Source of the DNA: Patescibacteria group bacterium
Lineage (GTDB): Bacteria > Patescibacteriota > Patescibacteriia > UBA10025 > JAHIVO01
NCBI GenBank assembly: GCA_049325535.1
Contig: JBMOKY010000001.1
Span: forward strand, 299,386 to 363,385
Reading direction: 5' to 3'
Length of the DNA: 64,000 nt
How positions within the stretch are numbered: the first letter of the stretch is position 1; the number at the start of each line of letters is the position of its first letter. Positions 1,276-43,839 of the stretch are shown one piece after another. The notes beneath the pieces were generated by a model. That model did no database searches and had not been told where the DNA came from. It saw only the letters and a program-made list of their open reading frames with translations. The translations under genes and the position numbers were made by a program.

Positions 1276-1279
1276 TTCT

Positions 1280-11476: not shown

Positions 11477-11503
11477 TTAGCACTCTTGACGTGAGAGTGC
11501 TAA
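11477..11503 (+). promoter_or_regulatory. CIRCE operator (HrcA binding site) overlapping hrcA promoter
   Basis: TTAGCACTC-N9-GAGTGCTAA perfect inverted repeat; TTGACG inside spacer and TTATAAT downstream. Confidence 0.85.
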
Positions 11504-11530: not shown

Positions 11531-12238
11531 ATGAAAGAACGAAAAAGAGCTATACTTAGCGCAATTATAAAGGAACATGTGCATGGAGACGGAAAACCCG
11601 TTGCTTCCCAGGCGCTTGTGGATAAGTATAAGCTGGAATTATCATCGGCCACCGTACGTAATGAAATGGCTGACCTCGAGTCAGAAGGACTGATTTTTCA
11701 GCCACATACGTCTGCCGGACGCATCCCCACGGAAAAAGGCTGGCAGTACTATATCGAGAATTTCCTGGTAGAAAAGCAGCCGGCGCAGGCGCAAATGACG
11801 CTCCTCGAAAAAGCACTGCACAAGCGGGAACAGGCACAGACAGATGTGGCGGTGAAAAACGTCGCCCGCACGCTGGCGGAAATTTCACAGAACGCCGTGT
11901 TTGTCGGTTTTTCGCGAGACAATGTGTATTATACTGGTCTGTCGAATTTATTTAACCATCCGGAGTTTGCGGACATAGATCTGGTGCGACATTTGTCGGC
12001 TATTGTGGATCATCTAGATGATGTGATCGCGGAATTATTTTCAAAAGTTACTGACACCCCGCGCATTCTCGTCGGCTCAGAAAATCCCTTTGGTAAGGAG
12101 TGTAGTACTATTTTCAGCCCGTATCAGGTGAAAGGATGCGAACCGGGATTGATCGGTGTACTGGGGCCGGTACGGATGGATTATGAAGACGCATTTGCCC
12201 TCGTCAATTACACAAAAAAATTATTCGCACATGCGTAA
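11531..12238 (+). CDS. hrcA: heat-inducible transcription repressor HrcA (short form)
   Basis: N-terminal wHTH KRAILSAIIKEHVHGDGKPVASQALV...SSATVRNEMADLESEGLI...HTSAGRIPTEKGW; 235 aa. Confidence 0.85.
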   Translation: MKERKRAILSAIIKEHVHGDGKPVASQALVDKYKLELSSATVRNEMADLESEGLIFQPHTSAGRIPTEKGWQYYIENFLVEKQPAQAQMTLLEKALHKREQAQTDVAVKNVARTLAEISQNAVFVGFSRDNVYYTGLSNLFNHPEFADIDLVRHLSAIVDHLDDVIAELFSKVTDTPRILVGSENPFGKECSTIFSPYQVKGCEPGLIGVLGPVRMDYEDAFALVNYTKKLFAHA

Positions 12239-12245
12239 CCATAGT

Positions 12246-12758
12246 ATGGAAGACAAGAAAGAACCAAAAGATAGTTTGAAGGAAAAAATTACCGATGTGG
12301 AAAAAATCGCCGCTGAATTAAAACTGGCGCAGCAAAAGATGGAAGAGTACATGAACGGTTGGAAACGGGCGAAGGCGGATTATCTCAATCTGAAACGCGA
12401 ATCGGAAAAAAAAGAACAGGAACTTGTTCAATTCGCCAATGCGGGACTAATTTTGCAACTCTTGCCCGTCTATGACAATTTTAAACTCGCCTGGAAACAT
12501 ATACCAAATGAACAGGTGAAGGTCGAGTGGGTGATCGGCATCGAGCATATCAAAAAACAATTCGGCGATATTCTGAAAAATCTGGGTATCGAAGAGATCA
12601 AAACCGTCGGTGAATCATTTAACCCTGAACTGCACGAGGCGGTGGCCAAAGAAAAGAAAGACGGTTTGAAGACGGATGTGGTATTTGAAGAAGTGAAGTC
12701 CGGGTATACATTGTTCGGAAAAGTGCTGGAACCGGCCAAGGTGAAGGTTGCCGCCTAG
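12246..12758 (+). CDS. grpE: nucleotide exchange factor GrpE
   Basis: Coiled-coil N-term then conserved GrpE core; ATG 12246 chosen (track 12156 overlaps hrcA). Confidence 0.85.
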   Translation: MEDKKEPKDSLKEKITDVEKIAAELKLAQQKMEEYMNGWKRAKADYLNLKRESEKKEQELVQFANAGLILQLLPVYDNFKLAWKHIPNEQVKVEWVIGIEHIKKQFGDILKNLGIEEIKTVGESFNPELHEAVAKEKKDGLKTDVVFEEVKSGYTLFGKVLEPAKVKVAA

Positions 12759-12881
12759 GCAATCCTGAACTCGATTCAGGATCTGAACGATTTAACAATG
12801 GAGATCCCGAAACAAGTTCGGGATGAGGAATAGAAAATTACTAATTCATTAAGCCCATTCGGGCAGCAAGGAACCAAACCT

Positions 12882-13310
12882 ATGCGACAACTCATGCGCT
12901 GGAGACCATTCTGGGATGTGTCCGAATTCGATAAATTTTTCGAGGACATGCCCATGGTCCCCTCCACGGTCCATGCATTCATCCCGGCGGTGGATGTGTA
13001 CCAGGACAAGGATAACGTCATCGTGGAAACCCCACTGGCTGGCGTGGATCCGAACAAAGTCAGCATCACCATCGAGAACGACGTGCTGAAAATCGAAGGC
13101 TCGATGGAGCACAAATCAGAAATTGATGAAAAAAATTATTACCGTAAGGAAGTGCGGGTTGGCAGTTTCTATCGTGCCGTGGCCCTGCCGACTCAGGTAA
13201 AAGGCGGTGACGCAAAAGCTGATTTTGAGAATGGGATGCTGAAAATCACCATTCCCAAAGCGGAAGAGGTAAAACCCCGCTCTATCAAAGTAAACGTAAA
13301 AAATCAGTAA
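12882..13310 (+). CDS. Hsp20/alpha-crystallin family small heat shock protein
   Basis: PAVDVYQDKDNVIVETPLAGVDPNKVSITIENDVLKIEG...GMLKITIPK. Confidence 0.9.
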   Translation: MRQLMRWRPFWDVSEFDKFFEDMPMVPSTVHAFIPAVDVYQDKDNVIVETPLAGVDPNKVSITIENDVLKIEGSMEHKSEIDEKNYYRKEVRVGSFYRAVALPTQVKGGDAKADFENGMLKITIPKAEEVKPRSIKVNVKNQ

Positions 13311-13362
13311 ATAGCACCTCAATCGTGAGGAAGACGGGCGCGGCCAACCCACATCAAACGGG

Positions 13363-13842
13363 TTGGCGCCCCGAAGCCAGAAGTATGAATTAGAAACCCC
13401 CTTTCGTTCTGCTTCTGGCTCCGGAGCGAATGCTCCGCGCGCGATCATCATCCCTATGCCTATCCAATTCGACAATTTCAACAGTAACCGGTTTTCCGGC
13501 GCCAACGGCGCGGGTAACGGCAATGACAGCCGTTCGGAGCGTATCCGCATCGACGCGCGCTGTCCCGTCTGCCAGTCGCCGTACGATTTCAACCGCATCG
13601 ACGTGATCCAGGAAGCTGACGGCGCCACGCTGATGTATATCAAATGTGGCGTCTGCCAATCGGCCGCTATGTCACTGATCGCGCTCGGGGCGCAGGGTCT
13701 CAAAGTCGCCAGCACCCTGACTGATCTGGAGCGCCATGAAGTACTGCGGTTTCAGGACAACGAACGGGTGAAGAGTGAGGATGTCTTAGCACTGCATCAG
13801 TTGCTTGAGCAGCCGATTGATAATTTTCTTAATTCATTCTAA
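13363..13842 (+). CDS. hypothetical protein with CxxC...CxxC zinc-ribbon; start uncertain
   Basis: ORF in heat-shock locus; CPVCQSPYD...CGVCQS; low-complexity G/N-rich N-term; no SD identified. Confidence 0.45.
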   Translation: MAPRSQKYELETPFRSASGSGANAPRAIIIPMPIQFDNFNSNRFSGANGAGNGNDSRSERIRIDARCPVCQSPYDFNRIDVIQEADGATLMYIKCGVCQSAAMSLIALGAQGLKVASTLTDLERHEVLRFQDNERVKSEDVLALHQLLEQPIDNFLNSF

Positions 13843-13913
13843 ACCCTCATTGTCGCCTCGACTGAAACGGAGAGGCCCTCATGACCGCAGTGACGGGCAG
13901 CCAACGGCATAAT

Positions 13914-13941
13914 GATCTCTCCACTTCGGTCGAGATGACAG
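13914..13941 (+). repeat. 28-nt palindromic repeat copy A (GATCTCTCCACTTCGGTCGAGATGACAG)
   Basis: 27/28 identical to 18168..18195; contains CTTCGG tetraloop hairpin. Confidence 0.6.
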
Positions 13942-14009
13942 ATGGGCAGTATCATCCATCTCACCAATAGTAATTAACCAACCATTAGAAAGCAATTAAC
14001 CAAACAACT

Positions 14010-15923
14010 ATGTCAAAAATACTCGGTATTGATCTCGGAACAACCAACTCCTGCATGGCTATCATCGAGGGTGGTGAGCCGAAAGTTCTCGAAAACAAAG
14101 AAGGTAATCGCACCACGCCCTCGGTGGTCGCTATCTCCAAAACCGGCGAACGCCTGGTTGGGCAAGTAGCTAAGCGCCAAGCCGTTACCAATCACCAGAA
14201 CACCGTTTTTTCCGTGAAGCGTCTGATCGGTCGCCACTGGAATGACGAAGAAGTACAGCATGATGTGAAAACCATGCCGTACTCTATTGAGCAAGCAGGG
14301 GAAGGTGTCAAAGTAAAAATGGTAGATAAACTCTACACACCGCAAGAAGTCTCAGCCATGATTCTTCAGAAATTGAAAGCTGATGCAGAGGCAAAGCTGG
14401 GTGAAAAAATCGAAGAAGCAGTGATTACCGTTCCTGCCTATTTTGACGACTCACAGCGCCAGGCCACCAAGGACGCAGGTGAAATCGCCGGCCTTAAAGT
14501 AAAACGTATTATCAATGAACCAACCGCCGCCGCACTGGCCTACGGATTTGATAAGAAAAAGAATCAGCAAGTAGCAGTCTACGACCTGGGTGGTGGTACG
14601 TTTGATATTTCCATCTTGGACATTTCCGAAGACACGGTCGAAGTGAAATCAACCAATGGTGACACCCACTTGGGTGGTGACGACTTTGACAAGCGGATCA
14701 TCGACTGGTTGGTTGAGGAATTCAACAAAGACCAAGGTATCAATCTCGGCAATGACCAAATGGCACTCCAGCGCCTGAAGGAAGCCGCAGAAAAAGCCAA
14801 GATTGAATTATCCACCACCAGTGAAACTGAAATCAATCTGCCCTTCATTACCACGGATGCTTCTGGTCCGAAACACATGAATCTCAAACTCACTCGCGCC
14901 AAACTTGAGACGCTCGTGGCTGACCTCATCGAAAAAACTATTGAACCAGTCAAGAAAGCACTGGCTGACGCTAAACTGGAAACCAAAGATATCGAAGAGG
15001 TGATCATGGTCGGTGGTATGACCCGTATGCCCAAAGTGCTGGAAACCGTAGAACAATTCTTCGGCAAAAAACCCCACATCGGTGTGAATCCTGACGAAGT
15101 GGTCGCTGTCGGCGCTGCAGTACAAGCTGGCGTGCTCCAAGGTGATGTAAAAGATGTGCTCCTGCTCGACGTGACTCCGTTGACTCTCGGTATCGAAACC
15201 CTCGGTGGCGTCTCCACTCCACTCATCGAACGCAACACCACCATCCCGACGACCAAATCGCAAGTATTCTCCACCGCAGCTGACAATCAGACTTCAGTAG
15301 AGGTCCACGTATTGCAGGGCGAACGTCCCATGGCCGGGGATAATAAAACGCTGGGACGATTTATCCTCTCTGGCATTCCGCCATCACCACGTGGCGTACC
15401 GCAGGTGGAAGTATCATTCGACATTGATGCCAACGGTATTCTCAACGTGAAGGCAAAAGACAAAGCATCTGGCAAAGAGCAATCCATCACTATTACGGCT
15501 TCATCAGGCCTATCCAAGGAAGAAGTCGAGAAAATGAAACAGGATGCCCAGGCGCATGCAGCCGAGGATACCAAGAAGAAAGAATTGATTGACCAGCGCA
15601 ATACTGCAGAAACCCTCGTCTACACCGCGGAAAAAGCACTGAAGGATGCGGGTGACAAAGTCAAAGATGATGTGAAGAAAGAAATTGAAGAAAAGATCAA
15701 AGTGGTCAAAGACGTGAAAGATAAGGATGATGTGGCAGCTATCAAGAAAGCAGTGGAAGATCTGAATCAAACGGTGCAGAAGATTGGTCAAGCGATGTAT
15801 GGTCAGCAACAGAAGGCTCCAGAAGGCGCAAAAGGCACGGAAGGCGATAAGGCTCAAGGTGCAAAAGGCTCTGCTCCAGTCGATGCAGAGTACGAGGATG
15901 TCAAAAAGGAAGACAAGAAGTAA
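14010..15923 (+). CDS. dnaK: molecular chaperone DnaK (Hsp70)
   Basis: Full-length Hsp70: [24 protein letters not shown]-like motifs. Confidence 0.97.
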
Positions 15924-15959: not shown

Positions 15960-16571
15960 TTGAGGGAAAATAATATGACATTTCAAGACGATATTAATGG
16001 AGCTATTCGAGAGATAGAGGGGCGAGGTTCGCAAGATTTATTTTTGAAAATTATTGAAGCTCGTAGTTTTTTGGCTGTTTCTTTTGAGCAGTATACTCAA
16101 AATAAAAACCAGAGCGTTCAATTATTTACCGATTCGTATTACACTTATCATTATTTTGCTTATGTAAATTTCTTTTATTCCTTGAAGGAAAGAACTGCTC
16201 AATTCATTAATAAATATTTGCGACTAGGCAATCCAATAGATGACGTAAGTTATCATAGAATTAGTCATAATGAGGAGGCACAAAAGGTTTTTAAAAAAAT
16301 ATTTGATTTCTTTGCTGATCCAGAATTTAAGTCAATTTCATCTGCAAGAAAAACGATGGTTCATCGTAGTCAAGATTATATTTCAGCAATACAGATAAAG
16401 GATTCAGCTAGCGCTCCTCAGCAAACTCCTCAGGTAAAGTTAGATAAAGATATTCTAGATAAGCCGAATGAAAAACTTAGTATTATTTTGATAAAAATAG
16501 TTGAATGTATTATTGATGAATTAAAGGAAGCTCAAAGTGAAAAGGGTGCAATTGATAAAGGTTCAGCCTGA
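15960..16571 (+). CDS. AT-rich orphan gene, possible HEPN-like (R-x4-H) protein
   Basis: GC visibly far below flanks; 203 aa helical; SARKTMVHRSQ contains R-x4-H; own hairpin terminator downstream. Confidence 0.55.
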   Translation: MRENNMTFQDDINGAIREIEGRGSQDLFLKIIEARSFLAVSFEQYTQNKNQSVQLFTDSYYTYHYFAYVNFFYSLKERTAQFINKYLRLGNPIDDVSYHRISHNEEAQKVFKKIFDFFADPEFKSISSARKTMVHRSQDYISAIQIKDSASAPQQTPQVKLDKDILDKPNEKLSIILIKIVECIIDELKEAQSEKGAIDKGSA

Positions 16572-26649: not shown

Positions 26650-26678
26650 TTGACAGGACGCTTGCGTGCGCGTAGACT
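26650..26678 (+). promoter_or_regulatory. sigma70-like promoter TTGACA-17-TAGACT for dnaJ
   Basis: Consensus -35, 17-nt spacer, -10 TAGACT, about 20 nt before ATG 26698. Confidence 0.5.
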
Positions 26679-26697
26679 GTTATATTTAGAGTATCCT

Positions 26698-27801
26698 ATG
26701 GCAAAAGATTTATACGAAATTTTAGGCGTCAGCAAAACAGCATCGGCGGATGAGATCAAGAAAGCCTACCGCAAACTGGCTCACCAGCACCATCCGGATA
26801 AACAGGGTGGCAACGAAGAAAAATTCAAGGAGATCAACGGTGCGTATCAGGTCCTGAGCGATCCAGAGCGCCGGCAGCGCTATGATCAATTCGGCAGCCA
26901 ATATGAGCAGGCAGCCGGTGCCCGCGGACAAGGGTTCTCCTGGGAAGATTTCGCTCGTGCGGCGGGTGGTGGTTTTGGTCAGGGTCAGCAGACCAGCTAT
27001 GACTTCGGGGATTTCGGTGACATTTTCGGAGATATTTTCGGGTTTGGTCGCAGGAGTGGAGGTCGCGCTGCACGCAGTCGCGGTCAGGACATCCAGGCTG
27101 ACCTGCGGATTACTATTCGGGAAGCGGCATTCGGCGTGGAGAAACAGGTGAGTTTATACAAATATGTCGAGTGCGGTCACTGCGCCGGTAATGGCGCTGA
27201 GCCCGGAAGCAGCATCGAGACCTGTCGTACTTGTGGGGGTCGCGGGCAAGTAGAGCAAATCCAGCAGACGATCCTCGGCCAGTTCCGTACCGCGGCGGTG
27301 TGTCCGGACTGCCACGGCGAGGGCAAGAAAGCGAGTACGAAATGTTCCGTCTGTGGGGGAACCGGTCGAAAACGCGCCAGTGAGGAAATTCGTATCAAGA
27401 TCCCGGCAGGTATCAGCGACGGGGAAGCAATCCGCGTTTCCGGTAAGGGTGAGGCGGGAATACGGGGCATCAGCGCTGGGGATCTGTATATAACCGTTCA
27501 TGTCGATTCGGATCCGGCATTTACCCGTGAAGGAGATGATATTCTTTCTACGGTCGAGATTAGTTTCAGTCAGGCCGCGCTCGGCACGAAGGCTCCGGTA
27601 GAGACCCTGGACGGTGAAGTTATGCTCAAAATTCCCGCTGGTACCCAATCCGGCAAAGTGTTCAAATTAGCCGGTAAAGGCGTGACGCATCTGCGATCGC
27701 GCGGTCGCGGCGACCATCTGGTGACTGTTGTCGTCCTGACCCCGACGAAATTGTCACGTAAACAAAAGCAGCTGCTCGAAGAGCTCGCCGAAGAAGAGTA
27801 G
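26698..27801 (+). CDS. dnaJ: molecular chaperone DnaJ
   Basis: J-domain with HPD, G/F region, four CxxCxGxG repeats, C-terminal domains. Confidence 0.93.
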
Positions 27802-33632: not shown

Positions 33633-34505
33633 CTATCGCCAGATAAGGATCATCGCCACACCAATGAGCATAATGCATCCGGCCAGCAGCCGATGACGGT
33701 AGCCGGCCTCTTTGAAATATATAGCGCCGATGCCGATACCGCCCAGTATTGATCCTGCCCGTTTGATGGTGATGACATACGGTACCAGAATGAGCTGGAT
33801 AGCATACATCTGGAGCAGGGTAGCGGTCCCGGTTAGCAGGCCGGTAAGTACCAGCGCCCGAACATTACCCGTGAATCCTGCGCGGAAAGATATGTTTCGC
33901 CGGAGTAAAATGTAGCCGGTAAATAAAATAAGCGAAGCCACTTCTGATACCAGCAAGTAAAACATGGGGGAGGAGTGGTCGATGCCGATTTTATCGAAAT
34001 TTGCCGTGACACTCCAGATGCCCGCAACTATCAGCGCGTACCAAGACCCACGTTCATGGATGAGGGAGCGTACGGGAGCCAGCCAGCCAGCCGCTCGTCC
34101 CTGAAAATGGATCAGATATGACCCGATGGTGACGATGCCGATTCCGAGCATACCCCATACACTGGGTACTTGGTCAAGGATAATCCACGATGTCAGGAGC
34201 ATGAAAACCGGACTAAACCCCAGAAATGGAATGGTGGCTGAAAGCGGCGAGATGTGGATGGCGCGTACTAGGAGGACACTGGAAAAAATAAATAATGGAA
34301 CGCTGACGGCAATGACATACCAAAATGGTTCCGTGACCGTGGGGATGCCCTGCACCACCACGCCTGCGACAAATATTGGTATAGAAAAACATACCGCGCT
34401 CCAATATATCACATAGATATGCGTCCGGTCAGTCAAAAATTTTTGTACGCCATCCCTCGCCGTAAAAAGCGCTGCGGCTATGATAGCCAGGGTGAAACCG
34501 AGCAT
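33633..34505 (-). CDS. DMT superfamily (EamA-like) transporter
   Basis: 10-TM, duplicated EamA halves; similar to 36703..37581. Confidence 0.75.
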   Translation of the reverse strand: MLGFTLAIIAAALFTARDGVQKFLTDRTHIYVIYWSAVCFSIPIFVAGVVVQGIPTVTEPFWYVIAVSVPLFIFSSVLLVRAIHISPLSATIPFLGFSPVFMLLTSWIILDQVPSVWGMLGIGIVTIGSYLIHFQGRAAGWLAPVRSLIHERGSWYALIVAGIWSVTANFDKIGIDHSSPMFYLLVSEVASLILFTGYILLRRNISFRAGFTGNVRALVLTGLLTGTATLLQMYAIQLILVPYVITIKRAGSILGGIGIGAIYFKEAGYRHRLLAGCIMLIGVAMILIWR

Positions 34506-35884
34506 TATCTTTTCTTTATCACCGGACCGGCCGGGGTATCATCCACGCGGAATCCGTTCTGTAGGATTTGATCGCGAAGGGCGTCCGCACCAGCAAAGTT
34601 CTTTTTCTCGCGGAGTTCTTCGCGTTGCTGAGCGAGATTGCGGATGTCGTCTGGCACTTCAATCGGCTGAGCGTCCTTCAGATTCAATCCCAGCACTTCG
34701 TCGAATTTGAGCAATGATGCTTTTTTGGCAGTAGGCGGGTTGTGTGATTTGAGCATATCCCAGACCACGGCTAGGGCCTGCGGCATGTTGAGGTCGTCAT
34801 TCACCGCATCCATAAATCGTTGCTCAAATTCAGCGCAGCCTGTTGTAGCTTCGCCCAAATCAGCCATGAGTGCCATCAGGTTTTCGTAGGCATTTTGGGC
34901 GGCCGCCAGCGCTTCCCAGGAGAATGTCAGCGGCTTGCGGTAGTGTGTACCCAATGTGAAATAACGGTAGGCGAGTGGGAGAATTCTATTCTTTTTGACA
35001 GTTTCGAGGGTAATGAAGTTACCGCCAGACTTTGCCATTTTCGTATCTTTGAGCACCAAGAATTCGCCGTGGATCCAGTATTTCACGAATTGTTTGCCCG
35101 TGACGGCCTCGGTCTGTGCGATTTCATTGGTATGGTGGATGGGGATGTGGTCGATACCGCCGCAGTGGATATCAAATTGTTCGCCGAGGTATTTTGCAGC
35201 CATGACTGAGCATTCCAAGTGCCAGCCGGGGAAGCCGGTGCCCCAGGGGCTCGGCCATTCCATTTGGCGTTTTTCGCCGGCGGGTGAAAATTTCCATAAT
35301 GCGAAATCTGTCGGGTGGCGCTTTTCGTCGTTTTTTTCCACCCGGGCGCCCTCCTGGAGTTTGCTCAAATTTTGACCGGTTAATTTGCCGTAGTCAGCAA
35401 GTTTGCCGGTGTCAAAATAGACGCCGTCGCTGGTGCGGTAGGTAAATCCTTTTTCTTCTAATTTTTTCACCCAGTCTATTTGTTCAGAAATATGGTCAGT
35501 GGCTTTCGCCCAGATATTTGGCTCCAGGATATTGAGCTCGCGCATGTTTTCTTTGAATGCGTCGGTATACAGCCGAGCTATATCCCATACGGATTTTTTT
35601 TGGGCAGCGGCGCTTTTTTCTATCTTATCGTCGCCGCTATCTGCGTCATCAGTGAGGTGACCGACGTCAGTGATATTCATGACATGGTTGACTGAATAAC
35701 CATCGGCGACCAATACCCGCTTCAGTATGTCCTCGAAAAGATAGGTACGCAAATTACCGATGTGAGCGAAATTGTACACCGTGGGGCCGCAGGTATACAG
35801 CCCGACTTGCTGGGCATGCCGCGGGGTAAAGGGTTCCTTTTTTCGTGTGAGCGTATTGTAGAGTCGCAACGTCATATGAGGCAA
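34505..35884 (-). CDS. cysS: cysteine--tRNA ligase
   Basis: CGPTVYNFAHIGN (HIGH motif), KMAKSGGN (KMSKS), class-I fold. Confidence 0.93.
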   Translation of the reverse strand: MPHMTLRLYNTLTRKKEPFTPRHAQQVGLYTCGPTVYNFAHIGNLRTYLFEDILKRVLVADGYSVNHVMNITDVGHLTDDADSGDDKIEKSAAAQKKSVWDIARLYTDAFKENMRELNILEPNIWAKATDHISEQIDWVKKLEEKGFTYRTSDGVYFDTGKLADYGKLTGQNLSKLQEGARVEKNDEKRHPTDFALWKFSPAGEKRQMEWPSPWGTGFPGWHLECSVMAAKYLGEQFDIHCGGIDHIPIHHTNEIAQTEAVTGKQFVKYWIHGEFLVLKDTKMAKSGGNFITLETVKKNRILPLAYRYFTLGTHYRKPLTFSWEALAAAQNAYENLMALMADLGEATTGCAEFEQRFMDAVNDDLNMPQALAVVWDMLKSHNPPTAKKASLLKFDEVLGLNLKDAQPIEVPDDIRNLAQQREELREKKNFAGADALRDQILQNGFRVDDTPAGPVIKKR

Positions 35885-35976: not shown

Positions 35977-36552
35977 TCAGGAACCGTCAGGTTTGATGCG
36001 AAAGAGCACTTGATCTTTGAGTACGGCTGAGCCGTTTGACACAAGTATTTCCACGATGGTGCCTCCGACTGGTGCCAGTATTTCATTGAATACCTTCATG
36101 GCTTCGATGATACAGACTGGCTGGTCGAGCGCGACATGGCTTTTTGGCGTGACATACGGCGGTGCGTCAGGAGCCGGCGCGGCGTAAAACGTTCCCGGCA
36201 AGAGCGCGGTTACCTCGACCAGGGTCGGATCGGCCGGTGCAGCGGTTTTTGGTGCGGCGACGCGGCAGTTGGTGATCACCGGTGCGTGCGCCGTTTCGAT
36301 AAGCATGAGCGGCTGGCCGAATTCTACCGGCTGTCCATCGCTTACCAGCAGATTGACTACCGTGCCGGGCACGTCCGCGATGACATCGTGACAGATGCCG
36401 AGCTGGGCGATTGAGCCGATTCGGTCGCCGATGCGGATTTGCGCGTGCACGCTGGTGCCGGTATGAAAAGTGCCCACAGTTTGCGAAATGATTGCGGCAA
36501 CGTATTTTGTCGTCGTAATCGGATTACCGGTATTCACCTTTTGTTCAGCCAT
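35977..36552 (-). CDS. biotin/lipoyl-attachment domain protein (BCCP-like), two tandem domains
   Basis: C-terminal domain has CIIEAMKVFNEI biotinyl-lysine motif; N-terminal domain degenerate. Confidence 0.7.
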   Translation of the reverse strand: MAEQKVNTGNPITTTKYVAAIISQTVGTFHTGTSVHAQIRIGDRIGSIAQLGICHDVIADVPGTVVNLLVSDGQPVEFGQPLMLIETAHAPVITNCRVAAPKTAAPADPTLVEVTALLPGTFYAAPAPDAPPYVTPKSHVALDQPVCIIEAMKVFNEILAPVGGTIVEILVSNGSAVLKDQVLFRIKPDGS

Positions 36553-36702: not shown

Positions 36703-37581
36703 CTATTGCCCGAAGACGAGGATAAAGAGGAGTCCGACAATAGTCACCAGCGCACCGCCAATGCGGTATCTGATATTATGCTCATGAAAAAAAGCCGCTC
36801 CCAGGACAATGCTTCCGGAAATGAGAAAGGCCCGCTTGATAGCGATGACATAGGAGACGAAGGTCGTCTGCAGCCCCATAAATACCAGAACGTCGGCGAT
36901 GACCGCCAGTCCGGCGATGATCAGGAGCAGCCGTGATTGGCGCCGGTGAAACGTCTGCACTATATCCTGCCGGCGTTTGCTGAGCATCCATACGTTCATG
37001 AATACAGCTTCAGCGATAATGGTGACACCGAGAAAAAACCACACACTGCTCTGACTGATCGCCATCTTGGCGAAGACCGCTGAGAAACTGTACATGAAGG
37101 CGATGGTCAGGATGTACAGGCTGGATCGGTGGGTGAAGATATCGCGGATGCGCCGCGTCAGTCCCTGGCGCAGCTCCTCACCTTTGAGCAGGATGGCGCC
37201 CAGGACGACCAGGAATATGCCCATCACCCCGTAGCTATTGGGCAGTTCTCCGAGCAGGAAGAATGATGTAAAAATGAGAAAGACGGGAGTGAAGGAAAGT
37301 AACGGGAGTGTCGTGGAGAGAGGCGCGATTTTTTCATCTTTGATGAGCAGGATATTACCGATGATGAGCAGGGGGGTATTGATACCGATGAGCAGCCAAA
37401 AATGAGGCCCTAGGTCAGGGATACCGGTGAATACTATATAGATGAGGTAGAGCGGCGCGGTCAGGCTGGCGATGGCCCAGAAAATCGCCGGGACCGGGAT
37501 GGTCTGGGTGGCTTTCTTTTTGAGGGCTTCGATGAGGGGGAAGAAGACCGCTCCCAGGATGACCAATACTAAACCGGGCAT
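36703..37581 (-). CDS. DMT superfamily (EamA-like) transporter
   Basis: 10 TM; paralogous to 33633..34505. Confidence 0.7.
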   Translation of the reverse strand: MPGLVLVILGAVFFPLIEALKKKATQTIPVPAIFWAIASLTAPLYLIYIVFTGIPDLGPHFWLLIGINTPLLIIGNILLIKDEKIAPLSTTLPLLSFTPVFLIFTSFFLLGELPNSYGVMGIFLVVLGAILLKGEELRQGLTRRIRDIFTHRSSLYILTIAFMYSFSAVFAKMAISQSSVWFFLGVTIIAEAVFMNVWMLSKRRQDIVQTFHRRQSRLLLIIAGLAVIADVLVFMGLQTTFVSYVIAIKRAFLISGSIVLGAAFFHEHNIRYRIGGALVTIVGLLFILVFGQ

Positions 37582-37611: not shown

Positions 37612-38580
37612 TTATGCGTCACGGTGTCCAGCCGCTTGGATATCTATCTCTTCGCTGCGCCACTCGGACATGACTTCTTCCACGTCCGCGGGTTCGACGG
37701 TTAGTCCGGCTTGGTTTTTTTGCTGTTTGATGGCGCGGAGCTTTACCAGTGACGCGGCTTCGTCCATCAGATCGATGGCTTTATCAGGAAAATGCCGGTC
37801 ACGGATATTTTTATCAGCTAGTTCGACGGATCGAGCCAGTGCGGCGTCGCTGATTTTCAGCTGGTGGTGCGTTTCATAACGCGACCGGACACCTTTGAGA
37901 ATCGCCAGCGTTTGCTCTGGCGTGGCCTCCTCGACCATCACCGGCTGAAACCGGCGCTCCAGCGTGGTGTCTTTTTCCACGTAGGCGGTATAGTCATCGA
38001 GGGTGGTGGCACCGATTACCTGCAGATCGCCTCGAGCCAGCGCTGGTTTGAGGATATCAGCCGCATCGATAGCGCCGGTGGCCTGGCCAGCCTCGGCCAG
38101 CGTGTGAATCTCGTCGATAAATAATATGATAGATCGTTTGGCCGCTATGATTTCGTCCACCAGGGATTTGAGGCGTTTTTCGAATTCACCGCGGTATTTG
38201 GTGCCGGCCACCAGTCCGCTCAGGTCGAGGGCCAGCAGTTTTTTATCGAGCAGCATACTGGTGACACTGCCGTCCGCTATTTTTTGGGCCAGGCCTTCCA
38301 CGATGGCAGTTTTGCCGACACCGGATTTACCGATGAGAACGGGATTATTTTTGGTACGGCGCGATAAAATTTGAATGACGCGTTCCACTTCGTGTTCCCG
38401 GCCAATGACGGGATCAAGCTGGTTTTGGTGGGCGAGCGCGGTCAGGTCTTTTGAATACAATTTGAGCACGCCGATATTTGATCGGGATTTGATATTTTCT
38501 CGGTATAACCAAAAGATAACCACCCCAAGCACAAGGAGGATAATCAGCAGCGATGTGGATGCTGGTTGCAAGTCGAACAT
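37612..38580 (-). CDS. membrane-anchored AAA+ protein homologous to ClpA/ClpB/ClpC D1 module only
   Basis: TM helix then LDPVIGREHEVERVIQILSRRTKNNPVLIGKSGVGKTAIVEGLAQ...ILFIDEIHTL...LKPALARGDLQVIGATT...ERRFQPV; ends before middle domain/D2. Confidence 0.8.
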   Translation of the reverse strand: MFDLQPASTSLLIILLVLGVVIFWLYRENIKSRSNIGVLKLYSKDLTALAHQNQLDPVIGREHEVERVIQILSRRTKNNPVLIGKSGVGKTAIVEGLAQKIADGSVTSMLLDKKLLALDLSGLVAGTKYRGEFEKRLKSLVDEIIAAKRSIILFIDEIHTLAEAGQATGAIDAADILKPALARGDLQVIGATTLDDYTAYVEKDTTLERRFQPVMVEEATPEQTLAILKGVRSRYETHHQLKISDAALARSVELADKNIRDRHFPDKAIDLMDEAASLVKLRAIKQQKNQAGLTVEPADVEEVMSEWRSEEIDIQAAGHRDA

Positions 38581-38733
38581 ATGGTTTTTGTTTTGTATAT
38601 GTAATGAGTATAGCATTTTTTTTCAGTTTTGGCAAGGCGTTACAATAAAGAAAAAAGCGCCTCAGAAGTTTTAGTAAACTGAGAGGCGCCTTTTATTTGG
38701 CAGGTGCCAGATCGATCAAATTCATCGGTAGTA

Positions 38734-39213
38734 TCATCGGTAGTATTTGATCTGATACATGGCACTGGCGGTAGCCACTCGGTCGGTCTGGTCGGTCTGA
38801 ACTTGGCCGTGATTGTCGATACCGGCTGATACATACGCCCAGGTCACTTCTACGATGAGGAATGTCTCAGAGTTGTTTCTCTGATTATTCACCGTAATCA
38901 TGAACCGGTGGCCATGGCGCTCCTTCTTGACCTTGACCCATTTGCCGTTTCCGATTTTGTATCGGATGGACTGGACGCGGTAAGCGCCGTACAGAGAGCC
39001 GTGAGGCTGGTCGAAGGTGACTTCGAATCGCTGGGACTTTCCCTTGATCGGGATGAAGTCGCCGAAGATCTGAGAGCCACCCTGGGCGAGGCGGACCGAG
39101 AACAGAGGCGACTGCCGCTGTTCTGATTTCACCTTCTGGGCGGCCAGGCACCCGGACGTCGAGAAAGCCACCACCAGGGCGGCGACCAAAGCAATGATTG
39201 TGCGCGGATTCAT
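38734..39213 (-). CDS. lipoprotein-like hypothetical protein
   Basis: MNPRTIIALVAALVVAFSTSGC signal. Confidence 0.5.
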   Translation of the reverse strand: MNPRTIIALVAALVVAFSTSGCLAAQKVKSEQRQSPLFSVRLAQGGSQIFGDFIPIKGKSQRFEVTFDQPHGSLYGAYRVQSIRYKIGNGKWVKVKKERHGHRFMITVNNQRNNSETFLIVEVTWAYVSAGIDNHGQVQTDQTDRVATASAMYQIKYYR

Positions 39214-39469
39214 TGAATCCTCCTTATTACAGTATTTTGTTTTCGGTGTTATGGGAGCACTTGTTGCCAAATAATATGACAATGAGCACAAAGAACTAAA
39301 CATCCTATCATGGCTGTCAAGAAATGTCAATACCTAGGGGGTGGTAATCATAGCCATTTTCTAACTATGTGTATAACTTTTCTAGTAAATCGGAATGATT
39401 TGATTTTTCAAATCTTGATTATTTACAGAAAAAATGATATAATATGTACATTCATACGTAACGGCCAGT

Positions 39470-40006
39470 ATGCCTGACATACAAAAAGTACAACCAGAAA
39501 ATCAGAGTCCTGAGGTAGAGGACATTTTTGGATTTGATGAGGCTGCCACTGAGCGTCCTGTCCCACAGCCGGAGCAACCGCCGGTGCCTGACACCCTACC
39601 GGAGCGTGAGGCGATGCCGGAGTTGGCTCCGGAAACGATGCCCGAACAGCAGCCTGAGTCAGAACAGTCGCGTCTGCAGTATGCACCACCTGCACCACCT
39701 GTTCAGACGCAGCCAGTGAGCAAAGATCCACAGGTGGAGCATATTGAAAATATTTTAGCAGAGCATTTGGAGGGGATATTCGTCAATATGTCGCCGCAGG
39801 AGCAGATGGCTTTTAAAGTAAAAGGCGAGGAGACGGCCACGAAAATCAATGTGTTATTGCAGGAGACCAAGATTAAAGTTCGCTCTATCCTGGATCTGAT
39901 CCGCGAGTGGCTCCAGCTGATTCCCGGGGTGAATAGATTTTTCGTGGAGCAGGAAGCGAAGATAAAGACCGATCGTCTGCTCAATCTTCGCGAGCAACAG
40001 AAGTAG
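39470..40006 (+). CDS. Pro/Glu-rich acidic hypothetical protein upstream of coupling-ATPase gene
   Basis: Low-complexity PEQPPVPD repeats then helical C-term. Confidence 0.5.
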   Translation: MPDIQKVQPENQSPEVEDIFGFDEAATERPVPQPEQPPVPDTLPEREAMPELAPETMPEQQPESEQSRLQYAPPAPPVQTQPVSKDPQVEHIENILAEHLEGIFVNMSPQEQMAFKVKGEETATKINVLLQETKIKVRSILDLIREWLQLIPGVNRFFVEQEAKIKTDRLLNLREQQK

Positions 40007-40027
40007 CACCATAAGTTTTCGCGCGGC

Positions 40028-42571
40028 ATGACGCCCCAGACCACTATCGTACAATCACTCGGTGATTTTTTTACCCGGCTGCTGGGGAGCGGAAGTTTTG
40101 CGGTACTCCTGGCAGGTGTTTCGGTCCTGGTGACTGTCATCGCCGGATTTTTTTTGCTGCGTCGGCATCTGCGGAGCGAAAAAGCGTTACCGCAGGCACT
40201 GCAAAAAGTAGTCCTGCTGGTGACCGTACCGAAGGAATCCGAGATGGCAGACGGAGAGGGTCGGAGCATGCCTGAGGTACAGGAACTGTTGGCGCAGGCC
40301 GAAGCCTGGTTTTCCACGCTGGGCGGCATGCGAGCGCAGCGCGGCATGACCGCGGCGGTGGCTGGCCGTACCGATCATTTTTCTCTGGAGCTGGTCGCGG
40401 CCCACGGGTTGATTTCATTTTATGTGGTGGTGCCGCGCTACCTCCGGGACTACATGGAGCAGCAAATTCACGCGCAGTATCCGCGGGCGAATATCGATCC
40501 GGTAGAGGATTTTAATATATTTACCCCGCAGAGTGTGGTGGTGGGCACAACCTTGCAATGCAAGAAAGAATATATATTTCCCATCCGCACCTATCGCCAG
40601 CTGGAGGTAGACCCGCTGCAATCCATCACGAATGTATTGGCCAAGGTGCCTGCTGGTGAGAGCGCGGTGATCCAATACGTCGTGCGCTCCGCCCGCGGCG
40701 AATGGCATGCATATGGGGCACGGGTAGCCACCCAGATCCATCAGGGCAAGACACTGAAAGAAGCGATTGGTCGGCACGGCGCCAGTGCGATCATCGGGGA
40801 GGTATTTCGTACATTTTTTCCGAAAAAAGAGCGATCGACTGAGTACCAAACCCCCCACACTCCCTCGGCCCGCGATGAGGAAATCGCTAAAAGTATAGAG
40901 GAAAAAACATCAAAAGCCGGGATGGACGTGAATATCCGCATTATCGTCTCGGCCCAGTCCGAGGCTCGGGCACGGGCACATCTGACCAATATCGTGGATG
41001 CCTTCAGTCAATATAACATGTACGAATACGGCAATGGGTTCATGCGTAAAGATGCTTTTCGGCGTGACGCGTTGATCCATGATTATATTTATCGTCGGTT
41101 CACTGACAAACACGCGGCACTGCTCAATGCCGAAGAAATGGCGTCAGTGTTTCATTTCCCACTGCCAATCACGGAGACGCCAAATATTCGGTGGCTGTCA
41201 TCTCGGAAAGCGCCCGCACCACTGAACGTGCCGAGTGAGGGGGTCATCCTCGGTCATAGTCCCTATCGCGGTCAGGACCAGGACATCCGTATCTCCCGCA
41301 GCGACCGCCGACGGCATGTGTATGTCATCGGTAAATCAGGCGTCGGTAAATCGGTACTGCTGTCGAATATGATCATTCAGGATATTCAGAATGGCGAAGG
41401 GGTCGGCGTGGTCGACCCGCATGGTGATTTGGTCAGTACGGTGCTGGAACACATCCCGCGGGAGCGGGCTGACGACGTCATTTATTTCAATCCGTCCGAT
41501 ATGGATCGACCGGTCGGGCTGAATATGCTGGAGGCGCGTACACCCGAGGAAAAAGATTTTGCGGTGCAGGAAATGGTGGCGATATTCTATAAATTGTTTC
41601 CGCCGGAAATGATCGGCCCGATGTTTGAGCATAACATGCGCAATGTCATGCTCACCCTGATGGAGGACGAGGAACACCCGGGAACCATAGCTGAGATTCC
41701 GCGCATGTTCACCGATCCGGCATTTCAAAAATACAAGCTCACCAAAGTCAAGGATCCGGTGGTGCGTTCGTTTTGGGAAAAGGAAATGGCCAAGACATCC
41801 GATTTTCACAAATCAGAAATGCTCGGCTACCTCATTTCAAAAGTAGGGCGGTTTGTAGAGAATGCGATGATGCGAAATATCATTGGCCAGCCGAAGTCCG
41901 GTTTTGATTTTGATGACGTGATGAATAACAAAAAGATACTCCTGGTCAATCTAGCCAAAGGTACTACCGGTGAGGTCAATAGCAATCTGCTCGGCCTGAT
42001 CATCGTGTCAAAATTGCAAATGGCGGCCATGAAACGGGTGGCCATGCCCGAGGACCAACGCAACGATTTTTATCTCTATTTGGATGAATTTCAAAATTTC
42101 GTGACCGACAGCATTGCCACCATATTGTCCGAAGCCCGGAAATACCGGCTCGACCTGACTATGGCCCATCAATACACGAGCCAGCTGGTCCGCGACAATA
42201 ACGATACACGTATCCGCGACGCCGTATTCGGGAATGCCGGCACTATGATTATGTTCCGGGTCGGCGTGGAGGACGCGGAAACATTTGCACGGGAGTTTGA
42301 CCCGGTATTCAACCAATACGACATTATTAATGTCGACATGTACACGGCACTCGTAAAATTATTGATCAACAATACCGCTTCAAAGCCGTTTAGCATGCAG
42401 ACCTATCCACCCCAACCAGGCGACCCAGCACTGGCTCGTCAGATCATTGAGCTATCCCGCATGAAGTTTGGTCGCGATCGGGGAGCTATCGAGCAGGAAG
42501 TCATGGAGAAATCTAAGCTTGGCGCACCGGCTCCTCGTCAGGGTCCGGTCATCGGCCAGCGAAGCCTCTAA
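40028..42571 (+). CDS. TraG/TraD/VirD4-like type IV coupling protein family ATPase, N-terminal TM
   Basis: Walker A VIGKSGVGKS at about aa 440; Walker B YLYLDEFQNF; LTMAHQYTSQL and FGNAGTMIMFRVG resemble T4CP C-terminal (TrwB/TraG-D_C) motifs. Confidence 0.65.
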   Translation: MTPQTTIVQSLGDFFTRLLGSGSFAVLLAGVSVLVTVIAGFFLLRRHLRSEKALPQALQKVVLLVTVPKESEMADGEGRSMPEVQELLAQAEAWFSTLGGMRAQRGMTAAVAGRTDHFSLELVAAHGLISFYVVVPRYLRDYMEQQIHAQYPRANIDPVEDFNIFTPQSVVVGTTLQCKKEYIFPIRTYRQLEVDPLQSITNVLAKVPAGESAVIQYVVRSARGEWHAYGARVATQIHQGKTLKEAIGRHGASAIIGEVFRTFFPKKERSTEYQTPHTPSARDEEIAKSIEEKTSKAGMDVNIRIIVSAQSEARARAHLTNIVDAFSQYNMYEYGNGFMRKDAFRRDALIHDYIYRRFTDKHAALLNAEEMASVFHFPLPITETPNIRWLSSRKAPAPLNVPSEGVILGHSPYRGQDQDIRISRSDRRRHVYVIGKSGVGKSVLLSNMIIQDIQNGEGVGVVDPHGDLVSTVLEHIPRERADDVIYFNPSDMDRPVGLNMLEARTPEEKDFAVQEMVAIFYKLFPPEMIGPMFEHNMRNVMLTLMEDEEHPGTIAEIPRMFTDPAFQKYKLTKVKDPVVRSFWEKEMAKTSDFHKSEMLGYLISKVGRFVENAMMRNIIGQPKSGFDFDDVMNNKKILLVNLAKGTTGEVNSNLLGLIIVSKLQMAAMKRVAMPEDQRNDFYLYLDEFQNFVTDSIATILSEARKYRLDLTMAHQYTSQLVRDNNDTRIRDAVFGNAGTMIMFRVGVEDAETFAREFDPVFNQYDIINVDMYTALVKLLINNTASKPFSMQTYPPQPGDPALARQIIELSRMKFGRDRGAIEQEVMEKSKLGAPAPRQGPVIGQRSL

Positions 42572-42577
42572 CGCTAT

Positions 42578-43108
42578 ATGTCAGGCACGACCAGTTCGCT
42601 ACTGCTGATGGTTGGGGTAGTTGTTATTTTTGGCACCGCGGCCTACGCCGGGATCAAGGCGGCACCCTGGCTCCCGGTATTCAAGCGGGATATCAAACGG
42701 ATCGTCACTCTGGCGAATCTGAAGCAAAACGACGTGGCCTATGATCTAGGCTCGGGTGACGGACGTGTTGTATTGGCATTGGCTCATAATTCGTCAGCAA
42801 CCATTTGCGGGTATGAGGTATCATTTGCTCTGTACCTGTGGTCATGGCTGAAAGTAGTATTGCTGGGATTGTCGCGTCAGGTGGAGATTCGTTTTGGGGA
42901 TTTCCTCTCGCGTGATTTGAGTCAGGCTACCGTTATTTTTTGTTTCCTCACCCCGAAAGCCATGGCCAAACTCGGACCGAAATTTAGAGCCGAGCTCCGC
43001 CCAGGGACACGGGTGATTTCTTACAGTTTTGCCATACCCGGCTGGGTGCCTGCCGCGGTCAGCCGACCTGCAGCTGATCGGATTCCCATTTATACCTATA
43101 TCTGTTGA
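42578..43108 (+). CDS. small class-I SAM-dependent methyltransferase with N-terminal TM
   Basis: Motif I VAYDLGSGDGRVVLALA. Confidence 0.65.
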   Translation: MSGTTSSLLLMVGVVVIFGTAAYAGIKAAPWLPVFKRDIKRIVTLANLKQNDVAYDLGSGDGRVVLALAHNSSATICGYEVSFALYLWSWLKVVLLGLSRQVEIRFGDFLSRDLSQATVIFCFLTPKAMAKLGPKFRAELRPGTRVISYSFAIPGWVPAAVSRPAADRIPIYTYIC

Positions 43109-43197
43109 TATCTGTTGACGAGTGGATTGAAATACGGTACACTGGAAACGCAAAAAGTCTCATAAAACAAACGATAACACATACACAATTAGCGCGT

Positions 43198-43839
43198 ATG
43201 GCGGCAAAACAAAACAAATTGCAACAGATAAAAAAACTGGTGGAAGCAGCTCATGTCTCGCTGGAGAGTGCGCGGCAGCTTTTGGTGCAGGTAGCGGGGG
43301 ACGATGGCGCTGATCTCGAAGTCGCGTCAAAAGCACATGCCGTCGGTAGTGTGTCCGCTTCGGAAAATGAAAAGATCATCGAAGGGGTATTTGACGGGCA
43401 AAATATGATCGGCCCGGACGGTAAGCAGTACAGCGTTCCCGCAAACTACGCTTCGAAGTCAAAACTGGTGGTGGGCGATACGCTGAAATTGACCATCACT
43501 GCTGACGGATCATTCATGTATAAGCAAATTGGACCTGTCGAGCGTCAACGGGTGGTGGGGCTGCTGGCGAAAGATGAGACAACTGACGAATACCGCGTGG
43601 TGGTGGGCGAGACGGCGTACAAAGTGCTGCTGGCTAGCGTCACCTATTTTAAAGGGGAACAGGGGGACGAGGTCGTGTTGCTCGTGCCGAAAGACAAAGA
43701 ATCAGTCTGGGGAGCAGTGGAAAACATCATCAAAGTGCACGACGGGCAGGCTTCAGCTACTGCGGCAGCTCCCGCTCAATTGGCGGCGGAAGCCACGACG
43801 CCAACACCCGCCGTTGAAGATATCGAGGATTTAGGGTAG
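43198..43839 (+). CDS. hypothetical protein with OB/KOW-like repeats
   Basis: ATG 43198; two VVGDTLKL / VVVGETAYKV beta-rich segments; Ala-rich tail. Confidence 0.5.
   Translation: MAAKQNKLQQIKKLVEAAHVSLESARQLLVQVAGDDGADLEVASKAHAVGSVSASENEKIIEGVFDGQNMIGPDGKQYSVPANYASKSKLVVGDTLKLTITADGSFMYKQIGPVERQRVVGLLAKDETTDEYRVVVGETAYKVLLASVTYFKGEQGDEVVLLVPKDKESVWGAVENIIKVHDGQASATAAAPAQLAAEATTPTPAVEDIEDLG

Follow-up and report, generated by a model that had tools for sequence, protein, structure and literature searches.

A membrane-anchored Clp/Hsp100-like ATPase family of Patescibacteria built on a D1 module without D2

Background

The classic AAA clade includes the D1 modules of Hsp100 proteins as well as FtsH, Msp1 and p97. 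Its members form hexamers that pull polypeptide through a central channel by means of pore-loop tyrosines; Hsp100, FtsH and Msp1 take up their substrate at the N-terminal face. To our knowledge, every characterised Hsp100/Clp ATPase with a D1 ring also has a D2 ring, and the division of labour between D1 and D2 is a long-running question in the field. The IGF/IGL loop through which ClpA and ClpC dock on ClpP sits in D2. FtsH has two transmembrane (TM) helices, and Skd3, the human CLPB, keeps a D2-type ring together with ankyrin repeats. As far as we know, and as far as the literature searched goes, no bacterial AAA+ extractase has been described that is anchored in the membrane and free of a protease in the manner of Msp1. 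The Patescibacteria, or CPR, have very small genomes, host-attached lifestyles and a poorly understood envelope biology.

Several single-ring or membrane-tethered machines are among the closest described systems. Msp1 is presented as an extractase of membrane proteins with a single AAA ring that faces the membrane (PMC12793716). Two further papers propose that an anchor of the FtsH/YME1L type aids hexamerisation (PMC7949044, PMC5095350), and the second of these attributes the hexamerisation of YME1L to its membrane anchor (PMC5095350). Skd3/human CLPB is treated as a single-ring, stand-alone disaggregase (PMC9934407). Here we describe a gene from a patescibacterial contig, of which a stretch of 64 kb (the window) was analysed, encoding a 322-aa protein in which a TM helix is followed by a Clp/Hsp100 D1 module, and we compare this protein and its family with the systems above.

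Results

Gene and transcription signals

Features of the locus are collected in Table 1. The TAA stop of the gene occupies positions 37612-37614 (-), and the open reading frame extends from 37612 to 38616 (-), offering two candidate ATGs, at 38616 and 38580. All close homologues begin with MFDLQ or MF.., matching the ATG at 38580, and the ATG at 38616 is overlapped by the -10 element of a promoter-like site (38635-38607). The upstream start is therefore ruled out and 38580 taken as the true start, so that the extent of 37612-38580 given by an earlier, sequence-only reading of this DNA proves exact. That reading had also placed the next gene 30 nt further on, and the ATG of the downstream neighbour, an EamA transporter gene, does lie at 37581, 30 nt past the TAA.

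Between the promoter-like site and the upstream gene (38734-39330), a hairpin with an RNA fold of -20.4 kcal/mol, absent from the output of the consensus scan, is followed by UUUUUU and is likely the terminator of that upstream gene. Given this hairpin and the promoter-like site, the D1-only gene appears to have its own transcription start. The consensus scan returned no terminator-like site between the stop of the D1-only gene and the EamA gene. No CIRCE heat-shock operator was found near the D1-only gene; the sole one in the window precedes hrcA, of the hrcA-grpE-dnaK genes, which do carry this operator.

Table 1. Positions of the gene, its encoded domains and motifs, and nearby signals (window coordinates)
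Feature	Coordinates	Strand	Basis
Gene for 322-aa membrane-anchored, D1-only Clp/Hsp100-like ATPase	37612..38580	-	ORF; homologue starts; Pfam, NCBIfam and PDB matches; dN/dS 0.03
Hydrophobic core of TM helix, L11-Y26	38503..38550	-	Kyte-Doolittle; modelled helix; charge pattern
Short basic tether from TM helix to first D1 helix, residues 27-37	38470..38502	-	Spacing in relatives
D1 large (nucleotide-binding) subdomain, residues 38-218	37927..38469	-	Pfam AAA; ClpC D1 alignment; model and Foldseek
Walker A, GKSGVGKT, residues 84-91	38308..38331	-	G84, S86, G87, V88, G89, K90 and T91 invariant
Pore loop 1, GTKYRGEFE, residues 126-134, including Tyr129	38179..38205	-	Invariant in 45/45 aligned relatives
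Walker B, ILFIDE, residues 152-157	38110..38127	-	I152, L153, F154, D156 and E157 invariant
Sensor-1 region, GATT, residues 190-193	38002..38013	-	G190, A191 and T193 invariant; T192 at least 90% conserved
Presumed Arg-finger pair R209/R210 in LERRFQP	37951..37956	-	Invariant
D1 small (lid) subdomain with final helix, residues 219-317	37630..37926	-	Pfam AAA_lid_9, E 2e-24
Promoter-like TTGCCA-17-TATACT with extended TG	38607..38635	-	Consensus scan, 10/12 matches; consensus match only
Hairpin then T-run, between upstream gene and promoter-like site	38652..38694	-	RNA fold

Protein architecture

An 8-residue N-terminal stub opens the 322-residue chain; one TM helix comes next, and a short linker joins it to a complete AAA+ module of the Clp/Hsp100 D1 type. 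Pfam returns AAA (2e-12) and AAA_lid_9 (2e-24) and nothing further of substance. The NCBIfam ClpB model is matched only over positions 150-399 of its 853 (E 6e-115), for a score of 385 bits against a cut-off of 1232; the ClpA model scores 340 against 993, and ClpV, ClpG, ClpK and other models all fall far under their curated cut-offs. When PDB sequences were searched, the best match was to residues 155-419 of B. subtilis ClpC (E about 8e-94), with ClpB at 1e-89 and ClpA at 1e-73, and all 45 PDB sequences at E<=1e-3 are Hsp100/Clp chains. The alignment to ClpB/ClpC D1, described earlier from the letters as almost residue-for-residue, is thus borne out by Pfam, NCBIfam and the PDB, at about 58% identity to ClpC D1, and each of the motifs quoted at that time is present (LDPVIGR, NNPVLIGKSGVGKTAIVEGLAQ, ILFIDEIHT and ERRFQ).

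An AlphaFold model built on an alignment of 45 relatives (pLDDT 84) consists of a helix at residues 6-33, a four-residue break and then the complete large and small subdomains of D1, with lid helices at 266-285 and 297-317. Its best Foldseek matches in the PDB are the D1 modules of M. tuberculosis ClpC1 and B. subtilis ClpC (56-58% identity, rmsd 2-3 A), the top structures being chains of substrate-bound ClpC/ClpC1 hexamers. Across an alignment of 121 sequences, Walker A, AGTKYRGEFEKRLK, ILFIDE, GATT, LERRFQP and FPDKAID are conserved at 95% or above, and DR.FPDKAID is invariant or nearly so among relatives. Comparison of the family with full-length proteins marks Ser86 of Walker A, in place of the usual Pro, as family-specific. 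From its position, Tyr129 is the predicted substrate-gripping residue of the pore loop, while R209 and R210 are taken by us to be Arg fingers on the strength of established knowledge of ClpB/Hsp104 D1. The D1 module is complete and, with activity predicted from the invariant motifs, catalytically intact.

Carboxy-terminal end

The protein had been thought to stop where the middle domain or D2 would begin. This stands as regards the end itself, which coincides with the D1-D2 junction, but not as regards the M-domain, whose absence is an internal one. The D1 small subdomain retains its last helix: V295, D299 and W307, invariant in the family, match the V-x3-D-x7-W of ClpC and have the spacing of its canonical VTxxDIAxVVSxW. 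A profile of the family tail matched 39 of 62 full-length ClpC proteins and aligned, in 35 of the 39, to the segment that follows the M-domain. The gap from DKAID to V295 is 29 residues, versus 70-89 in 35 of the 39 profile-matched full-length proteins. Pairwise alignment of the tail with ClpC gave no significant score (31 versus 29+-4 for shuffles), the placement coming from the family profile only. Since the final post-M helix is kept, the D1-only protein ends at the D1-D2 junction, and the profile placement in conjunction with the residue spacing indicates that the whole of D1 has been kept and that the M-domain insert is absent. The chain ends 15 residues past W307.

Pfam finds no match in the 322-aa protein to AAA_2 (D2), to Peptidase_M41 or to Clp_N (PF02861), the N-terminus being occupied by the TM helix instead. 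Direct reading of the 322 residues likewise reveals no IG[FL] tripeptide, as in the IGF/IGL ClpP-docking loop, and no HEXXH. Having no D2, the protein lacks the part of the Clp chain in which that docking loop resides.

Membrane anchor

A single N-terminal TM helix, the other main element of the sequence-only reading, is a family-wide feature. It is seen as a Kyte-Doolittle segment with a maximum above 1.6 in 112 of 120 relatives (lowest value, 1.36) and, in the window protein, as the long N-terminal helix of the model. In 119 relatives, the segment preceding the helix has a median length of 8 residues and a net charge of -0.5, and the 12 residues following it carry a net charge of +2.2. This positive-inside pattern argues for an anchor, not a cleaved signal peptide, with a predicted N-out, C-in topology under which the ATPase would be cytoplasmic. 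Between the end of the 17-residue hydrophobic window and the YSKDLT helix, the first of D1, lie 14-15 residues in 107 of 119 relatives; a tether so short and fixed suggests that the ring would sit near the membrane.

Distribution and selection

A search for related clusters was performed against a database of 5.8 billion proteins, and the best 120 clusters were taken. All of them share the truncated architecture: each is 303-367 aa long, 58-98% identical and of the TM plus D1 layout, and many are found inside contigs of 0.2-1.1 Mb. The named relatives among these clusters are Kerfeldbacteria or Patescibacteria group. A scan of species-representative genomes located the D1-only gene in 14 of them, including the complete Kerfeldbacteria chromosome CP181398.1, and its next-best matches were ordinary ClpC proteins of ~820 aa from Atribacterota, Halanaerobiales and Thermotogota. 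Long contigs with the gene include JACROE010000002.1 (1.12 Mb), JAKAGM010000001.1 (0.88 Mb) and ERZ1286166 contig_2308 (1.09 Mb). Lineages with TM-D1 proteins are the Patescibacteria, including Kerfeldbacteria, Buchananbacteria, Parcubacteria and Uhrbacteria.

Relative to its closest, 98%-identical relative, the gene shows 46 synonymous and 5 non-synonymous differences (dN/dS 0.031), with three of the five amino-acid replacements in the variable C-terminal tail, a pattern indicative of strong purifying selection on a functional D1-only gene. In a neighbour-joining tree of D1 cores, the 40 family tips are monophyletic (40/40), with no full-length protein nested inside the clade, and the window protein falls within it. 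D1 cores of the family share on average 70% identity with one another and 65% with the nearest ClpC D1 (Atribacterota, Halanaerobiales); the pace of change is therefore as slow as that of a working D1, and the constraints are the same. Six substitutions are diagnostic of the family relative to full-length D1 (P86S, V162A, G163E, N175D, A206T and L264F), and the window protein carries all of them (S86, A162, E163, D175, T206 and F264). P86S lies in Walker A, and V162A and G163E lie in the HTxVGAG region of pore loop 2. These six positions are candidates for adaptation to a one-ring function.

Two possibilities had been left open by the sequence-only reading, a domesticated half-Clp tethered to the membrane and a decaying gene. 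The family-wide layout, the purifying selection and the intact motifs support the former, and the latter is rejected given a dN/dS of 0.03, intact motifs and the same layout in relatives. Taken as a whole, these proteins form a Patescibacteria-wide family with an anchor, a tether of 14-15 residues and one D1, and with no N-domain, M-domain, D2 or protease-docking element.

Search for D2 and N-domain sequences

No reading frame within +-10 kb of the gene encodes D2 (AAA_2-type) or Clp_N at 26 loci (536 kb), these being the 64-kb window and 25 fetched loci, with a few near-duplicates; the N-domain query, used with phmmer, was that of ClpC. The check for a separate D2-like gene, suggested in the first reading, covered these flanks and was negative there. 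No D2-like or Clp_N-like ORF occurs in any frame of the whole window, none within +-10 kb at 17 Kerfeld-type loci (the 412 kb set), and none near the gene at eight loci of more distant family members (125 kb). Five other AAA+/P-loop genes in the Kerfeld-type loci, dnaX for instance, scored in the D2 search at noise level only. Frameshifted remnants of D2, which the first reading had proposed as a check, were not seen around the gene, nor were N-domain remnants. When a full ClpC was compared by tblastn with a Doudnabacteria locus, D1 and M were matched and residues 490-820 were left unmatched. The D2 of L067 ('Saccharibacteria'), the one full-length Clp with a CPR label that was found, retrieved in a protein search mostly fragments from other phyla and no CPR D2-only family, and so was uninformative.

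Gene neighbourhoods and a Doudnabacteria orthologue

A full-length ClpB or ClpC at the syntenic position in relatives would have made the gene a pseudogene fragment; what occupies this position in 18 loci is the same D1-only gene, and no full-length ClpB/C turned up there. The block around it is conserved, with cysS downstream (14/18), a protein of ~200 aa (14/18), dnaJ (12/18), dus (9/18) and corA immediately upstream (7/18). At 11 of the 18 Kerfeld-type loci the gene adjoins a divergent cluster with a TrwB/T4SS-coupling-like DUF8128 ATPase, which is accompanied by a 178-aa protein and two small proteins. The neighbours (cysS, dnaX, dus, dnaJ and corA) are housekeeping genes, and they differ in more distant members. 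Synteny was also used to look for an operon partner, and no candidate was retained, the neighbours being housekeeping genes that change between subfamilies. Anchored proteins are encoded downstream in four loci and are unrelated to each other. More distant family members are found in unrelated neighbourhoods, and the family therefore persists independently of context.

In Doudnabacteria, the slot DUF8128 - 173 aa - corA - X - cysS - dus is filled at X by a 440-aa TM-D1-M protein. This orthologue (P0216) combines a TM helix and D1 with a longer linker and with an M-like insert of ~88 residues, and is without D2. A search seeded with it added 30 TM-D1 proteins, 318-462 aa long, in Patescibacteria, Parcubacteria and Uhrbacteria; their tail after DKAID falls into three length classes of about 50-60, 102-121 and 153-163 residues. 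The simplest reading is that D2 and the N-domain were lost and the anchor gained early in the radiation, and that the lineage of the window protein lost the M-domain later.

Comparison with described AAA+ systems

Against ClpC, ClpB, ClpA and ClpE, the D1 module is homologous throughout, with 55-65% identity to ClpC D1. The AAA_lid_9 lid, Walker A and B, KYRGEFE, GATT, ERRFQ and the fold are common to the family and class-1 Hsp100 proteins, but the window family is one-ring, without D2, Clp_N or the M-domain coiled coil, and has an N-terminal TM helix instead. Because those proteins are two-ring and every curated cut-off was failed, the family should not be filed as ClpB, ClpC or ClpA.

Msp1/ATAD1 offers the same architecture and predicted geometry, namely one N-terminal anchor, a short linker, a single classic-clade AAA ring and no protease. 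The sequence family is nevertheless another one, as none of the 45 PDB matches (E<=1e-3) is Msp1 or ATAD1 and the lid belongs to AAA_lid_9. The two are alike by convergence, and for the window family an extraction activity would be a prediction by analogy. With FtsH/YME1L the family shares a membrane-tethered AAA ring whose entry face is predicted to be directed toward the membrane; it differs from FtsH in having neither M41 nor HEXXH, one TM helix, no periplasmic domain and an AAA module of the Hsp100-D1 type. Skd3/human CLPB is likewise an Hsp100 derivative reduced to one AAA+ ring, but there it is the D2-type ring that was kept and here the D1 ring, so that the two are mirror-image reductions, and the window family is, in addition, membrane-anchored.

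Discussion

The residues for hydrolysis and threading are invariant and the N-terminal face is held on a short tether, from which we infer a single ring with its entry pore facing the membrane. As we picture it, six copies would assemble into one AAA+ ring. Six anchors would hold its N-terminal, substrate-entry face against the membrane on the cytoplasmic side, and the Tyr129 pore loops, powered by ATP hydrolysis, would draw polypeptide through from the membrane towards the cytoplasm. Such a ring might extract or unfold membrane-embedded or membrane-proximal proteins, speculatively in quality control or in the disassembly of complexes, and would amount to a protease-independent dislocase with the geometry of Msp1/ATAD1 and descent from ClpC D1. 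With neither a protease domain nor a ClpP-docking loop, the protein presumably works by extraction, unfolding or disaggregation and not by proteolysis. By analogy with related machines, we consider a membrane-anchored single D1 hexamer that threads polypeptides from the membrane side to have an even chance of being correct. The more specific proposal, a one-ring, ClpC-derived Hsp100 that acts autonomously and independently of any protease as a dislocase or disaggregase of membrane proteins, and so as an independently evolved bacterial counterpart of Msp1/ATAD1, is a tentative one that we would not yet favour. Some two-ring Hsp100s have D1 modules that, once isolated, are poor at forming oligomers and at hydrolysing ATP, which counts against an autonomous ring; in this family, the anchor may, like that of YME1L, supply the drive to oligomerise that two-ring Clps obtain from N- and M-domains, adaptors and D2. 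Also counting against the main proposal are the lack of a functional partner in the gene neighbourhood and of a CIRCE element at the D1-only gene.

That the gene is a decaying fragment or an assembly artefact of a full-length ClpB/ClpC might be entertained because a Clp ATPase that stops after D1 is odd a priori, and because NCBI names it a Clp protease ATP-binding subunit. This we regard as practically excluded: more than 120 clusters share its length and layout, coming from independent samples and assemblers on contigs of up to 1.1 Mb; dN/dS is 0.03; the motifs for catalysis are intact; a promoter-like site of its own precedes the gene, which has a clean stop and a next gene 30 nt away; the TM-D1 family is monophyletic; and no D2 remnants were seen around the gene, either within +-10 kb at the loci searched or in the Doudnabacteria locus. 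A further alternative is a split Clp. Here the D1 protein would pair with a separately encoded D2-type ATPase, or dock on another AAA+ protein or protease, FtsH or ClpX/ClpP for example, and so rebuild a machine of two tiers at the membrane. In its favour, the ring would leave its C-terminal, exit face free and turned to the cytoplasm, and constraints on the D1 sequence are as strong as in full-length ClpC. Furthermore, other phyla have, on long contigs, proteins with Clp_N and D1 but no D2, so that D1 and D2 may exist in nature as separate genes. However, neither D2 nor Clp_N is encoded within +-10 kb at the 26 loci or in the 64-kb window, D2 remnants are not found downstream in the Doudnabacteria locus, and what follows the last D1 helix is a short, unconserved tail in which no docking motif is visible. 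The genomes that carry the gene also yielded no second Clp, which is weak evidence, the scan being pattern-limited. We therefore think a split Clp unlikely.

A role other than threading would make the protein, instead of a general unfoldase, a membrane-bound factor for the assembly, remodelling or regulation of a specific machine, for example that encoded by the neighbouring CPR-specific TrwB/T4SS-coupling-like cluster. ClpV provides a precedent, as an Hsp100 relative specialised on one secretion machine. The divergent DUF8128/TrwB-like cluster adjoins the gene in 11 of 18 Kerfeld-type loci, and a DUF8128 ATPase with a small upstream protein does so in Doudnabacteria, a different class. Yet the association is lost in other family members (L088, L089, L090, L095 and L096), and the cluster is divergently transcribed and lies inside a housekeeping block, so the linkage may be inherited gene order. 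The invariance of Tyr129 and its flanks, moreover, argues for threading, and we find a dedicated, non-threading factor quite improbable. Assignment as an anti-phage defence ATPase was also tried and set aside, as PADLOC gave only generic AAA matches (TRIP13 and IetA; E ~1e-6 over ~85-120 residues).

Conclusions

Full-text searches of the literature turned up no account of a Clp reduced to D1 and anchored in the membrane, be it in the CPR or elsewhere; the TM7x paper mentions clp genes of the host only. Public records name these proteins 'AAA family ATPase' or 'ATP-dependent Clp protease ATP-binding subunit (ClpC)'. The latter, automatic annotation overstates their capability, because the part that docks on ClpP is missing. 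The architecture is clear, conserved and previously unremarked, and the function proposed for it is a prediction. A natural and strongly conserved D1-only protein offers a direct test of what a D1 ring does alone. Should it act as an extractase of the Msp1 type, it would be a new element of membrane-protein quality control in bacteria, and should it work as an autonomous dislocase or disaggregase, the D1 ring of Hsp100 would be an autonomous threading motor.

Gene neighbourhood of the TM-D1 gene

The TM-D1 gene, which encodes a membrane-anchored 322-aa protein with a single Clp-type D1 module and no D2, is followed directly by cysS in most relatives (feature coordinates are collected in the table). 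Because of this arrangement, the EamA and lipoyl genes that intervene in the window look like an insertion, also found in locus L001. In four divergent loci, a gene for an N-terminally anchored protein lies 4-39 nt downstream of the TM-D1 gene; the four proteins are mutually unrelated in sequence, and their placement may be fortuitous, such proteins being abundant in these genomes.

On the other side, the product of the gene immediately upstream contains an internal Met and then, as judged by eye, a signal-peptide-like stretch ending in FSTSGC, and would possibly be a lipoprotein; its sole Pfam match is a weak one to Laminin_G (E 2e-3). Beyond it is a divergently transcribed cluster encoding, in order, a 178-aa protein with an N-terminus rich in Pro and Glu, an 847-aa TrwB/T4SS-coupling-like ATPase with DUF8128, and proteins of 176 and 244 aa, neither with a firm Pfam match. 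This cluster adjoins the TM-D1 gene in 11 of the 18 loci of the Kerfeldbacteria-type synteny comparison, and a DUF8128 ATPase and a small protein are likewise adjacent in the Doudnabacteria locus, L092.

Five MAG records from TPA, each bearing the title 'uncultured Gammaproteobacteria bacterium', also carry the TM-D1 gene. Four of these (L008, L009, L011 and L016) have in common parts of the Kerfeldbacteria synteny block, namely cysS, the ~200-aa protein and dnaJ, with DUF8128 and dnaX also common to three of the four; the fifth, L017, shares the TM-D1 gene alone. The Gammaproteobacteria labels of all five are probably wrong.

Other features of the window

The perfect CIRCE operator preceding hrcA is the sole copy in the whole window, a search allowing up to 3 mismatches having returned no second one. 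Near the window start, a 1393-aa ORF has no Pfam match at E<=1e-3; it may encode one of the large surface or secreted proteins typical of CPR.

Features of the window and of related loci
Feature	Position	Strand	Remarks
1393-aa ORF	window 1223-5404	+	adjoins Peptidase_C39-like protein
Peptidase_C39-like protein	window 5458-6261		next to 1393-aa ORF
CIRCE, TTAGCACTC-N9-GAGTGCTAA	window 11477-11503	+	precedes hrcA (11531)
hrcA-grpE-dnaK	window 11531-15923		downstream of CIRCE
HEPN-domain protein, 203 aa	window 15960-16571	+	immediately 3' of dnaK; Cthe_2314-like HEPN, E 1e-7
dnaJ	window 26650-27801		10 kb beyond hrcA-grpE-dnaK
EamA-family transporter paralogue 1	window 33633-34505	-	
cysS	window 34505-35884		between EamA paralogues
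191-aa stand-alone protein	window 35977-36552		between EamA paralogues; two biotin/lipoyl-attachment-like stretches
EamA-family transporter paralogue 2	window 36703-37581	-	
Gene upstream of TM-D1	window 38734-39330	-	protein of ~160-198 aa
Divergent DUF8128 cluster	window 39470-43839	+	dnaX comes next
Gene 3' of TM-D1	L004 10993-11457		anchored protein, no Pfam match
Gene 3' of TM-D1	L088 10949-12058		anchored protein, no Pfam match
Gene 3' of TM-D1	L089 10994-12826		anchored protein, no Pfam match
Gene 3' of TM-D1	L096 11207-12379		anchored protein, no Pfam match
P0216, 440-aa TM-D1 orthologue	L092 4786-6108		Candidatus Doudnabacteria; same syntenic slot as window gene
P0229, 712 aa	L094 586-2724		5-kb contig

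D2-less Clp architectures

Four proteins of 453-598 aa (P0128, P0423, P0439 and P0504), encoded on contigs of 0.6-2.4 Mb, combine Clp_N with D1 and lack D2; they fall outside the TM family and may represent split or truncated ClpC genes of other lineages. P0229 has D1 and an M-domain, then a transmembrane helix and, where D2 would be expected, a C-terminal region of ~300 residues for which no Pfam family, AAA+ or otherwise, is recorded. It may be an alternative route to a membrane-bound, D2-less Clp, or it may be an artefact of gene calling or assembly.

Within the TM family, 30 further anchored D1-only proteins of 318-462 aa (among P0395-P0480; loci L095 and L096), from Patescibacteria, Parcubacteria and Uhrbacteria, occur in unrelated gene neighbourhoods. 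They fall into three length classes, distinguished by how large an insert or tail follows the conserved DKAID motif of D1. In the Doudnabacteria orthologue, P0216, a longer linker (~35 residues) joins the TM helix to D1, and there is an M-like coiled-coil insert (~88 residues) but no D2; the protein looks like an evolutionary intermediate on the way from ClpC to the minimal 322-aa form.
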